Virus record (IMG/VR): IMGVR_UViG_2548876938_000007
Source: a virus
Taxonomy: Duplodnaviria; Heunggongvirae; Uroviricota; Caudoviricetes
Direction: 5' to 3' (one strand)
DNA length: 3,786 bases
The position numbers and the translations under genes are program-made. Of the stretch, positions 1-3,773 are shown one piece after another. The notes beneath the pieces were generated by a model. It saw only the letters and a program-made list of their open reading frames with translations. It searched no databases and had not been told where the DNA came from. The first letter of the stretch is position 1, and every line of letters starts with the position of its first letter.

Positions 1-996
1 TTATGGACGCATTATGGACATTCCTGACACCGGGTTAAGAGTCACAGCATCTTGTAAGAAATCCGGTGCAAAGTGTGCGTAGGTCATAGTTTGCTGAATG
101 TTAGAATGACCCAGGATGCGCTGCAATGTGATTATGTTACCTCCATTCATTATAAAATGTGTGGCAAATGTATGCCTCAAAACATGCACTGCCTGTCCGT
201 CAGGTAAATCGGGTTTTACTTCCCTGAGAGCGTTACGCACTTTGTAGTAACTGGCATTAAAAAGCCTGCCTGAATTTTTGGTCTTGATCCGTTTAATCAG
301 ATCCTGCGAAACGGGAATTGTCCTGCGCTTTCCGTTTTTAGTTTTCATAAACGTAACCATCTGGTTAATGATGTGTTCAGCTTTTAAATTAGACACTTCA
401 CTCCAGCGTCCACCAGTAGAAAGGCAGACCAGAGTTGCATTTAATTCATCACCATCGAGCATGGATAACAGCCGCGTAATCTCTTCACTGGACAAAAAAG
501 CCATTTCCGTAACAGCTTCACGTAACCGCTTAACCTCACGGAACGGGTTATGAGAGTGGTATTCACCGGCGTCAATTAACTTGGTGAACATACCGCTCAT
601 TATTGCCAGATGACGATTTACGCTGGCTGGTTTTAGACCATCGTTCATCATTACAACGCGATAATCAGTTATCGTTTTCTTTGTTAGCTGGTCAGCTCTG
701 GACACTCCCATTTCTGCAAATTTGGCGATTATTGTCGTTAAACGCCCCCGTTCAATATCCCCCCGCTCATGCGATTTTCCGTGATATATCCACCATCGGC
801 CTAACAACTCGGTAAGAGTTCGGCGATCGGCTGGTTTCTCTATCCACTCTTTGTTGTGGTAGTTAACCAGAACATGACGCTCGAATGCTTGAGCTTCACC
901 TTTAGTTTTAAATTTCCGCCTGATACGTTTTCCATCTGCACCCTGCGGCCTGACGTCCACTTCATAACGACCATCATCGAGCTTTTTAATAGACAT
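1..996 (-). CDS. int: Tyrosine-type site-specific integrase (phage integrase family), 331 aa
   Basis: Complete ORF on the minus strand: ATG at 996..994, stop TAA at 3..1. SD-like GGAGGG (complement of 1002..1007) lies 4 nt upstream of the ATG. The C-terminal region carries the tyrosine recombinase signature (VLRHTFATHF ... LGHSNIQQTMTYAHF with the presumed catalytic Tyr). N-terminus MSIKKLDDGRYEVDVRP resembles P2/186-type integrases. Confidence 0.93.
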   Translation of the reverse strand: MSIKKLDDGRYEVDVRPQGADGKRIRRKFKTKGEAQAFERHVLVNYHNKEWIEKPADRRTLTELLGRWWIYHGKSHERGDIERGRLTTIIAKFAEMGVSRADQLTKKTITDYRVVMMNDGLKPASVNRHLAIMSGMFTKLIDAGEYHSHNPFREVKRLREAVTEMAFLSSEEITRLLSMLDGDELNATLVCLSTGGRWSEVSNLKAEHIINQMVTFMKTKNGKRRTIPVSQDLIKRIKTKNSGRLFNASYYKVRNALREVKPDLPDGQAVHVLRHTFATHFIMNGGNIITLQRILGHSNIQQTMTYAHFAPDFLQDAVTLNPVSGMSIMRP

Positions 997-1089
997 AAAG
1001 CCCTCCGATGATGCTGTTTACTGCTACTACTTGAAAATTAATGCAATTTTCTTTCGTACATTTACTGCACACATATGCTGAATAAATCG

Positions 1090-1389
1090 TCAGCCAGTCT
1101 TTTGGTCTGAGTGGTGCAAGGTTGTTGAGTCTTGCCCAATGTGTGCGAGAGCTGGGGCTATTTGACCAGCTGCGGGATCAGTTTCATCAAACATGAACCA
1201 ATCACGGTATTTACGGAATCTTGGATGTTTTAGAAGTCGCACCACTGCATCATGTGAAATAGATGATTTCCCATTTTCGTACCCTACATACGTAACGTAA
1301 TTAATACCTGTCATTTCAGCTACTTCCTTCTTCTTGAGCCGTTCAGACTCACGGATAAGTTTTAGCTTTTCACGAATCTCAATTGACAT
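1090..1389 (-). CDS. C: Immunity repressor, P2 C-like, 99 aa with N-terminal helix-turn-helix
   Basis: ORF on minus strand, ATG at 1389..1387, stop TGA at 1092..1090. Length is exactly 99 aa, as in P2 repressor C. HTH-like segment KKEVAEMTGINYVTYVGYENGK. C-terminal GQIAPALAHIGQ...SDQKTG matches my recollection of the P2 C C-terminus. Position immediately upstream of int and divergent from cox is as in P2. Confidence 0.85.
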   Translation of the reverse strand: MSIEIREKLKLIRESERLKKKEVAEMTGINYVTYVGYENGKSSISHDAVVRLLKHPRFRKYRDWFMFDETDPAAGQIAPALAHIGQDSTTLHHSDQKTG

Positions 1390-1493
1390 AATGAATCAGA
1401 TCTCTTATTTTTAATCCGTTGTGATATTCCACATCTAACTCTAGTCAACTCCAACTAGCTTTAGTTAGTGGGGCCAATTAGGAGAATAGCAAA
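1383..1493. promoter_or_regulatory. Lysis-lysogeny switch region: candidate early promoter (rightward), candidate repressor promoter (leftward) and operator-like repeats
   Basis: Rightward candidate: -35 TTGACA at 1383..1388 (overlapping the repressor start codon), 17-nt spacer, -10 TATTTT at 1406..1411. Leftward candidate: -35 TTGACT (complement of 1443..1448), 16-nt spacer, -10 TATCAC (complement of 1421..1426), a weak -10. Repeats: AACTC at 1437..1441 and 1447..1451 (10 bp apart), AACTAG at 1453..1458, and an imperfect inverted repeat CTAACTCTAG (1435..1444) / CTAAAGTTAG (1459..1468). Exact promoter and operator assignments are not resolvable by eye. Confidence 0.5.
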
Positions 1494-1850
1494 ATGAATG
1501 TCGGATCTGAAATTTCTGACGAGACAAGACAAGAACTCTCCGTTCTCACAAAAGCAAAGCGTGATTCCGTTAAATTGGCGGCGGCACCATCAGACTTGCT
1601 GTCGAAAGAAGGTTTTGCGCTTTACATCGGCAAGACACCACGAGCGGTGGCTGAAATGGCGAAAGCAGGAAAGCTGCCAGCCTTTTACATGACAGACCCA
1701 TTAAAGCCGGGAGGTCATGCTGAGTTATGGATTAATCGGCGTGAGTGGGACAAGTACGCAGCACAGCTAGTCGAAGAAGCTCCATCAGAATGGCACGACT
1801 GGAAAAATCGCATTAGTTACAGCAAATCAAGACATGGCCGTGCGGCTTAA
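1494..1850 (+). CDS. cox: Cox-like excisionase / early-promoter regulator, 118 aa
   Basis: ATG at 1494 is preceded by AGGAGA (1480..1485) with 8-nt spacing; stop TAA at 1848..1850. The central segment FALYIGKTPRAVAEMAKAGKLPAFYMTDP...AELWINRREW resembles the P2 Cox HTH-like core as I recall it. It is the first gene of the rightward operon, divergent from the repressor. About 27 aa longer at the N-terminus than P2 Cox (91 aa). Confidence 0.75.
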   Translation: MNVGSEISDETRQELSVLTKAKRDSVKLAAAPSDLLSKEGFALYIGKTPRAVAEMAKAGKLPAFYMTDPLKPGGHAELWINRREWDKYAAQLVEEAPSEWHDWKNRISYSKSRHGRAA

Positions 1851-1860
1851 GGTGGACAGG

Positions 1861-2031
1861 ATGAATGAGCCGCGTTGTATTGCTCAGTTATTGCGTAACG
1901 AAAGCCCCAGGGCGATTGATTTCACCATCACCCACGGGAAGGGTCGCAAAGGAATCATTATCCGCACTAAAAAACAGAGTCCATTAAAGAAGGCTCTGAC
2001 CTTTCTGAAAAGCCGGAGGGTATGGAAATGA
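1861..2031 (+). CDS. Small basic hypothetical protein, 56 aa (position equivalent to P2 orf78)
   Basis: ORF-track ORF 1834..2031, but the ATG at 1834 lies inside cox with no SD. The ATG at 1861 is preceded by AAGGTGGA (1849..1856). Stop TGA at 2029..2031 overlaps the next start (ATGA at 2028..2031), suggesting translational coupling. No recognisable domain. Confidence 0.45.
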   Translation: MNEPRCIAQLLRNESPRAIDFTITHGKGRKGIIIRTKKQSPLKKALTFLKSRRVWK

Positions 2032-2528
2032 CAGTGATGACGCTCAATCTCGTTGAAAAACAGCCAGCAGCTATGCGCCGGATAATTGGTAAGCATCTGG
2101 CCGTCCCTCGCTGGCAGGAGACATGCGATTATTATAATCAGATGATGGAACGCGAACGGCTAACGGTTTGCTTCCATGCGCAGTTAAAACAGCGTCACGC
2201 AACGATGCGTTTTGAAGAAATGAACGACGTCGAACGTGAACGACTGGTTTGTGCAATTGATGAATTGCGTGGCGCATTCTCAAAACGCCGTCAGGTCGGC
2301 GCAAGTGAGTATGCATATATTAGTTTTTTAACAGTCAGTCAGCGTCGTACTTTATTTATGCATGCGGGATTGACAGAAAAAGAATTCAATCAGCCGTACT
2401 GGCGAATTAATGAAGAATCATGTTACTGGCGTGATGCTTTATTCCGTGCATTACGTGAATTATTCAGTCTGTTTGAGTATGCACCGACAATTCTGACGTC
2501 GGTAAAACCAGAGCAATATCTGCATTAA
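2028..2528 (+). CDS. B: Replication gene B-like protein, 166 aa (assignment by synteny and length)
   Basis: ORF track gives 2022..2528 (168 aa), but GGAGGG at 2015..2020 is only 1 nt from ATG 2022 and 7 nt from ATG 2028, so 2028 is the likelier start. It overlaps the upstream stop as ATGA. 166 aa equals the size of P2 gpB and the position between cox and the small-ORF cluster is the same. I cannot confirm sequence similarity from memory. Confidence 0.65.
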   Translation: MTVMTLNLVEKQPAAMRRIIGKHLAVPRWQETCDYYNQMMERERLTVCFHAQLKQRHATMRFEEMNDVERERLVCAIDELRGAFSKRRQVGASEYAYISFLTVSQRRTLFMHAGLTEKEFNQPYWRINEESCYWRDALFRALRELFSLFEYAPTILTSVKPEQYLH

Positions 2529-2549
2529 ATAATTAACCAGAGTTTTTAA

Positions 2550-2577
2550 CGCACTTAATCGTGCGGGGCTTCTTTTT
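2550..2577 (+). terminator. Weak hairpin followed by T-rich tract between the B-like gene and the next ORF (possible attenuator or partial terminator)
   Basis: Stem CGCAC (2550..2554) pairs with GTGCG (2561..2565) around loop TTAATC, followed after GGGC by TCTTTTT (2571..2577). Short stem and a gap before the T-run make this weak. Confidence 0.2.
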
Positions 2578-2591
2578 GCCTGGAGAAAGTC

Positions 2592-2816
2592 ATGCATACA
2601 GTTTCTGAAAATCAGTGCGGTAAATACGCATTACTGCTGCAACAGGCCAGAACCGAAGCACAGGCCGATGCTGCGACGCGCTTTTCTTCTCATCTTGACG
2701 CCATGATTCGCCACATCACCAAGGCGGAGTTATCCCGCGTGGAGATAGTTGAGCTGCTCAGTCAGGAGTCGGAAAAATTTCACAATATCGGATTGTCTCG
2801 CGGGGAGGTGCTTTGA
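2592..2816 (+). CDS. Hypothetical small protein, 74 aa (position equivalent to P2 orf80)
   Basis: ATG at 2592 preceded by GGAGAA (2582..2587); stop TGA at 2814..2816 overlaps the next ATG (TGATG). No domain recognised. Confidence 0.7.
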
Positions 2817-3118
2817 TGTCCTGTTCTCGTTCGGTTGTATTACTGAATAACGCCTTAAAAATCGCCGTTATGAAAAATGGTGATTTGTCTCTTATTCAAC
2901 TTGGTATTGATAAAGAGAAGCGCGAAATAACTGAATCTGTTATCGCGATTTATCAGAGTGAATTAAACCTCCTGTCTGATGTGGTCAATTTACTTGTTAA
3001 ACGCGCTGTATTCCACAAGCAAATTTCCTCAGTGGATGAACTGACAAAATTAACGACAGAACTCGCCAGTTATTGCGCTGATGAATTTAAGAAGCTGAAC
3101 GACAAAAGGAGCTGGTAA
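2816..3118 (+). CDS. Hypothetical protein, 100 aa, AT-rich, predicted helical (position equivalent to P2 orf81)
   Basis: ORF track starts at TTG 2813, but ATG 2816 is preceded by GGGGAGGTG (2802..2810) at 5-nt spacing and overlaps the upstream stop. Stop TAA at 3116..3118 overlaps the next ATG (TAATG). Hand-counted GC is about 33-38% in three 60-nt blocks (2821..3000) versus about 47-57% in neighbouring ORFs. Confidence 0.7.
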   Translation: MSCSRSVVLLNNALKIAVMKNGDLSLIQLGIDKEKREITESVIAIYQSELNLLSDVVNLLVKRAVFHKQISSVDELTKLTTELASYCADEFKKLNDKRSW

Positions 3119-3342
3119 TGCCGGACAACGTGGATTTTATTCAGGAACAACAGGCTGAATTACTGGAGCGCCAGATTAACGCGGCAAGGGTAAAACATTG
3201 CGGTGTTTCTGCGCTGGTTTGCGAAGAGTGTGACGCGCCAATACCTGCTGCCCGTCGTGCGGCTTATCCGTCAGCCACGCGTTGTGTTTCCTGTCAGTCA
3301 GTCTTTGAAGCAAAAAACAAACATTACCGGAGAACGGCATGA
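3118..3342 (+). CDS. TraR/DksA-family C4-type zinc-finger protein, 74 aa (position equivalent to P2 orf82)
   Basis: ATG at 3118 preceded by AAGGAG (3106..3111) at 6-nt spacing. Two Cys pairs, C-x2-C (CEEC) and C-x2-C (CVSC) about 20 residues apart, plus the motif PIPAARR...C..CQ and a C-terminal KHYRR, closely resemble F-plasmid TraR and phage TraR-like proteins. Confidence 0.85.
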   Translation: MPDNVDFIQEQQAELLERQINAARVKHCGVSALVCEECDAPIPAARRAAYPSATRCVSCQSVFEAKNKHYRRTA

Positions 3343-3614
3343 GTATTCGTATTGAAATTGGCGAACGTTATGTCGTTACCAGTGACAGCTTTCAGTTTAT
3401 TCTCCACGAGAAAAAGAGAGCGGAAAGCGGTAAAAACGCCGGTCAGGAATGGCTGGCGGTGGTTGGTTATTACCCGAAATTAGGCCAGCTCGTTTCCGGC
3501 CTGATGCATCACGATATTCTGACCGGAAGCGCAAAATCTTTTGCTGATTTAAACGCGCAGGTTGAGCAACTCAGCAAGCGTTGTTCAGAGGCTTTTGGCT
3601 CATATGGCCGTTAA
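3339..3614 (+). CDS. Hypothetical protein, 91 aa (position equivalent to P2 orf83)
   Basis: ATG at 3339 overlaps the upstream stop (ATGA); GGAGAA at 3329..3334 lies 4 nt upstream. Stop TAA at 3612..3614. No domain recognised. Confidence 0.7.
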   Translation: MSIRIEIGERYVVTSDSFQFILHEKKRAESGKNAGQEWLAVVGYYPKLGQLVSGLMHHDILTGSAKSFADLNAQVEQLSKRCSEAFGSYGR

Positions 3615-3773
3615 AGCCTCCGGGCGTTTTGTCCCTCCGTCAGCATTTACCGCAGGCACCGGTAAGGCGTTTACCGGCACCGGCTCACCAAAGGTGAATG
3701 CCTCCATTTTCGGGGCGCTGGCGGTCATTTTTTTTGCCGCAGGTTGCGGTGTTTTCCCTTTTTTCTTGCTCAT
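3600..3773 (-). pseudogene. Q: Possible 5' fragment of a portal protein gene (P2 gpQ-like N-terminus), 57 codons then stop
   Basis: Minus-strand ATG (complement of 3771..3773) is preceded by GGAG at 8-nt spacing (TGGAGTTTTACTGATG, complement of 3771..3786). Translation MSKKKGKTPQPAAKKMTASAPKMEAFTFGEPVPV resembles the N-terminus of P2-family portal proteins as I remember them, then diverges (NALPVPAVNADGGTKRPEALTAI) and stops at 3600..3602. Too short for the ORF track. The assignment is from memory only. Confidence 0.3.

Follow-up and report, generated by a model that had tools for sequence, protein, structure and literature searches.

The gene at positions 3118-3342 on the plus strand of the window, by which we mean the whole 3786-base stretch of DNA that was analysed, is orf82 of a P2-like (Peduovirus) prophage, and its product belongs to the TraR branch of the DksA/TraR family. 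We put at about 0.93 the probability that this assignment holds together with the action on host RNA polymerase that we propose below. The identity of the gene, its family membership, its conserved residues and its position in the operon were established directly for the copy in the window. They confirm, by sequence and profile matches, a preliminary description that had predicted a 74-amino acid TraR/DksA-type protein with a C4 zinc finger at this location.

Identity of the gene

The reading frame begins with an ATG at 3118 and ends with a TGA at 3340-3342 on the plus strand, as given by the list of open reading frames and by the sequence, and it encodes 74 amino acids. The gene and its ribosome-binding signal are as follows.

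3118..3342, plus strand: orf82 coding sequence, TraR-family RNA-polymerase-binding zinc-finger protein, 74 amino acids plus stop (open reading frame list; Pfam, NCBIfam and PHROG matches; identity to P2 Orf82)
3107..3111, plus strand: Shine-Dalgarno sequence AGGAG, 6 nt 5' of the orf82 ATG and within the end of orf81 (read off the sequence)

The ATG of orf82 overlaps the stop codon of orf81 (TAATG), and its own stop codon overlaps the start codon of orf83 (ATGA). Together with the AGGAG sequence, these overlaps are typical of translational coupling within an operon. Open reading frames that cover orf82 in other frames (3176-3340, minus strand, and 3203-3355, plus strand) matched no Pfam family even at E<=1, and an Rfam scan of the whole window gave no match. 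Among six P2-type copies of orf82, pairwise dN/dS was below 1 in every pair, a weak indication given the 2-10 substitutions per pair. We conclude that the 74-codon gene is genuine and is phage P2 orf82.

The window protein is identical to P2 Orf82 (NP_046793, P2p38) at 73 of 74 residues, the sole difference being A30V, and the V30 protein is found at 100% identity in phages P24E6b and vB_EcoM-720R8. At this position V or I is usual among the aligned homologues (alignment A2, described below), with V in the 186-like ones; the P2 protein that has been studied biochemically has A30. The likeness to P2 extends to equal protein length, the orf81 and orf83 neighbours, the overlapping start and stop codons and the DxxDxI variant of the N-terminal motif. 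The differences are the conservative A30V substitution and the surrounding int-C-cox module, which in the window is not that of P2.

Family membership

Profile searches, which the preliminary description had named as a check, placed the protein above the curated cut-offs of both relevant family models. It matched Pfam PF01258 (zf-dskA_traR) with E 2.4e-11 and 43.8 bits over residues 34-64, against a cut-off of 24.9 bits, and NCBIfam TIGR02419 (C4_traR_proteo, the phage/plasmid TraR subfamily) with E 5.8e-22 and 78 bits, against a cut-off of 59.7 bits, the latter match spanning positions 1-64 of the 64 in the profile. PHROG 54, labelled 'DksA-like zinc-finger protein', was matched with E 5e-33 and 114 bits. 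The best sequence matches in the PDB were F TraR chains from RNA polymerase complexes (5w1s_M and 6n57_M, E ~1e-10), followed by YbiI. This family match is far beyond chance.

More narrowly defined models fitted less well. The equivalog for F-type conjugative TraR (NF010268) scored the protein at 45 bits against a cut-off of 108, and the neighbours of orf82 are phage early genes in place of the tra operon in which F-type TraR is encoded. The DksA equivalogs (TIGR02420 and NF033459) gave 19.7 bits against 115.5 and 27.4 against 105, and that for YbiI gave 46.4 bits against 96. As these scores lie well below the respective cut-offs, we regard the protein as a member of the TraR-length subfamily that is an orthologue of none of F TraR, YbiI and DksA. 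It has no counterpart of DksA residues 1-68 (alignment A1, described below), and it differs from the coiled-coil form of ~150 amino acids that defines DksA.

Conserved residues and predicted structure

Two alignments were used to identify conserved positions. Alignment A2 contains the window protein, the Orf82 proteins of P2 and L-413C, six distant Peduoviridae homologues (42-50% identity), F TraR and lambda Orf73; alignment A1 adds YbiI and DksA. The segments of the gene that encode conserved parts of the protein are listed here.

3124..3141, plus strand: codons 3-8, D-N-V-D-F-I, counterpart of the TraR/DksA DxxDxA motif (alignments A1 and A2)
3220..3294, plus strand: C4 zinc-finger/globular domain, C35-C59 (codons checked; columns invariant in A2; Pfam match at residues 34-64)
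3253-3258, plus strand: R46-R47, counterparts of TraR R48/R49 (invariant in A2)
3295..3339, plus strand: stretch with conserved Q60, E64 and K68-H69-Y70 (TraR chains aligned by phmmer as far as residue 70/71; A2; low-confidence AlphaFold helix 59-68)

Residues D3, D6, C35, C38, R46, R47, C56, C59, Q60 and E64 are invariant in A2, and K68-H69-Y70 are nearly so. The zinc-finger cysteines C35, C38, C56 and C59 have the spacing CxxC-x17-CxxC and align with those of TraR, lambda Orf73, YbiI and DksA, so that the C4 finger read from the sequence alone in the preliminary description fits on proper alignment as well. A fifth cysteine, C28, lies outside the finger. The acidic residues that correspond to the tip of the DksA coiled coil, for which the same description had suggested looking, are present as D3 and D6, equivalent to D3/D6 of TraR and D71/D74 of DksA. 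According to Gopalkrishnan et al. (mBio 2022; PMC9239242), the two aspartates of the TraR DxxDxA motif reach the active-site region of RNA polymerase, and the requirement for this pair has been demonstrated for TraR and for lambda Orf73. These authors also describe contacts of the TraR R48/R49 pair with the rim helices and beta' Si3, and of the C-terminal helix with beta Si1 (PMC9239242).

While both aspartates of the motif are kept, the alanine at position 8 (codon 3139-3141) is replaced by isoleucine in the window, as in P2-type phages. The residue is valine in the 186-like homologues of ENT90, RE-2010, 4 LV-2017 and ST258-KPC3phi16.1, and alanine in the Eganvirus phages MHG39 and EtG as well as in F TraR and lambda Orf73. 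The P2 protein likewise deviates from DxxDxA in having no A8, which has been suggested as part of the cause of its lower potency (PMC9239242). As P2 Orf82 is active in the absence of this alanine, the last residue of DxxDxA is conserved and not obligatory.

The 74-amino acid length is close to the ~73 amino acids of the TraR type, and the protein aligns with TraR up to residue 70/71. A single-sequence AlphaFold2 model consisted of a helix at residues 5-28, the finger and a helix at 59-68; the model was poor (pLDDT 61), and in a Foldseek search of the PDB it ranked TraR (6n57_M) top at a level that is not significant (E 0.045, TM 0.35), and our reading does not draw on it.

Of the relatives that have been studied, F TraR (PDB 5W1S, 6N57/6N58) is ~39% identical to the window protein over the full length, and the two share D3/D6, the C4 finger and the arginine pair. 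The window protein is also predicted to have the N-terminal helix of TraR, which bears D3/D6, and its C-terminal helix, which ends in KHY. F TraR differs in having Ala8 where the window protein has Ile, and orf82 lies in a phage early operon and not in a tra operon. Lambda Orf73 is likewise of TraR length, is encoded in the early region of a temperate phage and conserves D3/D6, the C4 finger and the RR pair; in contrast to the window protein it has a perfect DxxDxA motif and a different C-terminus, and identity is ~30%. E. coli DksA and YbiI share the zinc-finger domain and the aspartate pair in the portion inserted into the secondary channel, whereas DksA has 151 amino acids, a long coiled coil and a need for ppGpp.

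Operon context

The window corresponds to the immunity and early region of a P2-like (Peduovirus) prophage, and this bears out the placement of the gene in the early operon of a temperate phage in the preliminary description, with the gene order of P2. Its features are given below.

1-996, minus strand: tyrosine integrase (open reading frame list, family matches)
1090-1389, minus strand: helix-turn-helix (HTH) repressor, 99 amino acids (open reading frame list, family matches)
1383..1411, plus strand: putative Pe-like early promoter, TTGACA-17-TATTTT, sigma-70-like (consensus scan alone, 10/12 matches)
1494-1850, plus strand: cox-like gene (open reading frame list, Pfam, PHROG)
1861-2031, plus strand: orf78 homologue (open reading frame list, Pfam, PHROG)
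2028-2528, plus strand: B (open reading frame list, Pfam, PHROG)
2592-2816, plus strand: orf80/DUF2732 (open reading frame list, Pfam, PHROG)
2816-3118, plus strand: orf81/DUF5405 (open reading frame list, Pfam, PHROG)
3339-3614, plus strand: orf83/DUF5405 (open reading frame list, Pfam)
3604-3677, plus strand: replication gene A, first 24-25 codons, cut by an apparent deletion junction (open reading frame list, alignments)

The rightward early operon thus reads cox, orf78, B, orf80, orf81, orf82, orf83 and A, with orf82 placed as in P2. The Pe-like site reaches into the beginning of the divergent repressor gene, as Pe does in P2, and its position matches that of the annotated Pe. E. coli E94, which is 98.1% identical over 1-3677, has its genes annotated in the order and with the lengths of the window, and so does phage P2 for the part that starts at 1847. 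The six more distant Peduoviridae phages examined also place the TraR gene after the DUF2732 gene and before gene A. In one of them, 4 LV-2017, both small genes lack annotation, and the TraR gene was seen solely as a tblastn match upstream of Dam and A. Around the TraR gene, the Peduoviridae examined carry either inserted accessory genes (Dam methylase, exonuclease) or orf81/orf83.

Several further features of the region were observed. The flanking genes orf81 (2816-3118) and orf83 (3339-3614) are paralogues, both in Pfam DUF5405, and neither is found in the 186-like relatives; we saw no support for the name 'replication initiation protein' that PHROGs gives to them. Between B and orf80, at 2550-2580, a hairpin followed by a T-run lies at the site annotated in P2 as a 'putative rho-independent terminator'. 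This hairpin is weak, with a 5-bp stem and a fold of the whole spacer of -14.4 kcal/mol (z -1.24), and because of this weak fold we did not accept it as an operon boundary.

The int-C-cox module of the window (1-1846) differs from that of P2, which the window matches only from 1847 on. It is common to phages pro483 and P24E6b and to many E. coli prophages inserted beside pflA, and the exact integrase protein occurs in 1749 blocks of the public assembly collection. Cox is 118 amino acids long in the window and 91 in P2. As int-C-cox is not P2's while the genes from orf78 to A are P2-like, we ascribe the arrangement to mosaic exchange of the immunity/integration module. The window starts at the integrase stop codon, and in complete genomes no more than 31 bp lie between this codon and pflA. 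Since the window runs from this stop codon to 13 bases past the start codon of Q, the prophage attachment site lies outside the view.

Published activities and proposed mechanism

The preliminary description had called phage proteins of this kind functionally little studied, which does not apply here: the P2 protein, one conservative residue away from the window protein, has been characterised in vitro and in vivo (PMC9239242). Binding to RNA polymerase at the DksA site, inhibition of rrnB P1, promoter activation and dksA complementation, with kinetically sensitive promoters regulated independently of ppGpp, are known from that literature on the 99%-identical P2 protein, and we expect them by analogy of the window protein. 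P2 Orf82 was one of five TraR homologues chosen by Gopalkrishnan et al. (mBio 2022; PMC9239242). The purified protein competed with labelled DksA on E. coli RNA polymerase at a half-maximal concentration of 0.65-1 uM, about that of TraR, and inhibited rrnB P1 without ppGpp with an IC50 of 250 nM, ~5-fold less potent than TraR (~50 nM), the ppGpp-independent effect on this promoter being common to both proteins. It activated thrABC and argI 2- to 4-fold, whereas lambda Orf73, equal to TraR in potency, gave little activation of either promoter. When induced from a plasmid, P2 Orf82 complemented a dksA null strain on minimal medium (PMC9239242). The assay of rRNA and amino-acid-biosynthesis promoters that the preliminary description had put forward is thus already in print for P2 Orf82, with the predicted result (PMC9239242).

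The same paper states that Orf82 is expressed from Pe together with the replication genes, for which it cites the P2 review by Christie and Calendar, and cites Liu et al. 1993 for a report that over-expression of Orf82 halts cell growth. The authors propose that Orf82 diverts host transcription in the lytic cycle. Lambda Orf73 raises burst size and slows host growth, and it is for lambda, not for P2, that such a role has been demonstrated (PMC9239242).

From these data and the alignments we propose the following mechanism. Upon loss of the C repressor, orf82 would be transcribed from the early promoter along with cox, B and A, and would be translated by coupling to orf81 and orf83. The 74-amino acid protein would bind in the secondary channel of host RNA polymerase, at the DksA site. 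By analogy with the cryo-EM structures of TraR-RNA polymerase complexes, we infer that the N-terminal helix would bring D3 and D6 towards the active site, that the zinc-finger domain with R46/R47 would sit at the channel rim and beta' Si3, and that the C-terminal helix would touch beta Si1. Without any need for ppGpp, open complexes at rRNA and ribosomal-protein promoters would be destabilised and promoters of the thrABC and argI type stimulated, so that host transcription capacity would be shifted during the lytic cycle.

The preliminary description is supported in its family assignment, cysteine spacing, acidic tip residues and early-operon location, whereas the role of Orf82 in the life cycle is what we infer. 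Its benefit to the phage would presumably lie in such a role, which we extrapolate from lambda Orf73, whose effects on burst size and host growth serve as the model for it. A point against it in this particular element is the truncation of gene A, owing to which a productive lytic cycle may not exist.

A junction between genes A and Q

From 3678 on, the window leaves gene A; what follows matches the beginning of portal gene Q on the minus strand (ATG 3773) and the final codons of terminase gene P. Homology to A ends after codon 24-25, and the alignments to A and Q overlap in a 6-bp microhomology, TACCGG, at 3672-3677. Judged from the sequence, this signature implies a deletion of ~5.5 kb (in P24E6b coordinates) by which the bulk of A, including the replication origin, would be lost along with the accessory genes, cos and the greater part of Q. 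Searches for the junction in 50,697 phage records, 5426 complete E. coli genomes, PLSDB plasmids, GTDB species representatives, IMG/VR and JGI metagenomes gave no match, and neither did an exact-protein search with the 57-amino acid chimeric reading frame across it. All ten contigs that encode an identical integrase carry full-length A. We take the junction to be an assembly artefact or else a private deletion, the outcome of which would be a defective prophage whose early operon is intact; the reading of orf82 is unchanged by it.

Alternative explanations

A different view of the protein is that it mainly serves the phage's own replication or transcription and not a general shut-off of the host, which we consider unlikely. 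It could possibly do so by tuning P2 promoters or by clearing RNA polymerase ahead of rolling-circle replication; DksA limits conflicts between replication and transcription. In all seven Peduoviridae phages examined, the gene comes after the DUF2732 gene and before A, and a section heading in Gopalkrishnan et al. (PMC9239242) states that F TraR activates promoters of its own element. Synteny is, however, the one line of evidence for this view, and the biochemical mechanism would be unchanged, with the target alone differing. We find it very doubtful that Orf82 natively works for the replication module of the phage, clearing or redirecting RNA polymerase for P2 replication; if true, isoleucine or valine in place of alanine at position 8 would represent lineage-specific tuning of activity and not a defect. 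The junction at 3672-3677 bears on a further reading, in which orf82 is an intact but idle remnant, a silent passenger in a prophage from which A, cos and the portal gene are missing. We hold this to be quite improbable. The fusion of A to Q is consistent with it, as is the lack of the junction in every collection searched. Against this, the nine genes from int to orf83 are full length and the promoter-like site is kept, so that derepression would still express orf82; moreover, the junction could be an assembly artefact, and it has no bearing on the identity of the protein. Related to the replication-linked reading, and no less doubtful, is the idea that orf82, kept intact where A, cos and Q are gone, provides the host with a stringent-like switch that is independent of ppGpp and controlled by the repressor.

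We also considered a DNA-binding zinc-finger activator of the P2 Ogr or P4 Delta type. These are four-cysteine proteins of ~72 amino acids from P2-like phages, comparable to the orf82 product in size and in having four cysteines in two pairs. Yet P2 has an ogr gene of its own, beside D at the opposite end of the late region, and the cysteine spacing and flanking residues of the window protein align with TraR. A Pfam search at E<=0.01 returned zf-dskA_traR alone, and P2 Orf82 competes with DksA on RNA polymerase (PMC9239242). On the family scores and the published binding to RNA polymerase we exclude an activator of this type, the chance of which is practically negligible.

Distribution and annotation of the gene

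Of 5426 complete E. coli genomes, 1603 carry the 225-nt orf82 at >=95% identity, and several chromosomes have it at 100% DNA identity. RefSeq names the gene in E. coli 'TraR/DksA family transcriptional regulator'. The finding made here is correct but ordinary and already known: with the gene in ~30% of complete E. coli genomes, correctly annotated in RefSeq and its product characterised, it has little discovery value. On the contribution of a DksA mimic that acts without ppGpp to infection by a P2-type phage or to the lysogen, a question of modest scope, the window offers one more copy and nothing else that is new.

In two phages, annotation lags behind the sequence. Phage 11W (NC_070902.1) has an intact TraR-family reading frame (L011, 1501-1725) that is unannotated, a 126-nt coding sequence having been called in another frame, and Klebsiella phage 4 LV-2017 (NC_047818.1) has an intact one (L023, 2501-2725) where nothing has been called. 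These are gaps in annotation and not losses of the gene.
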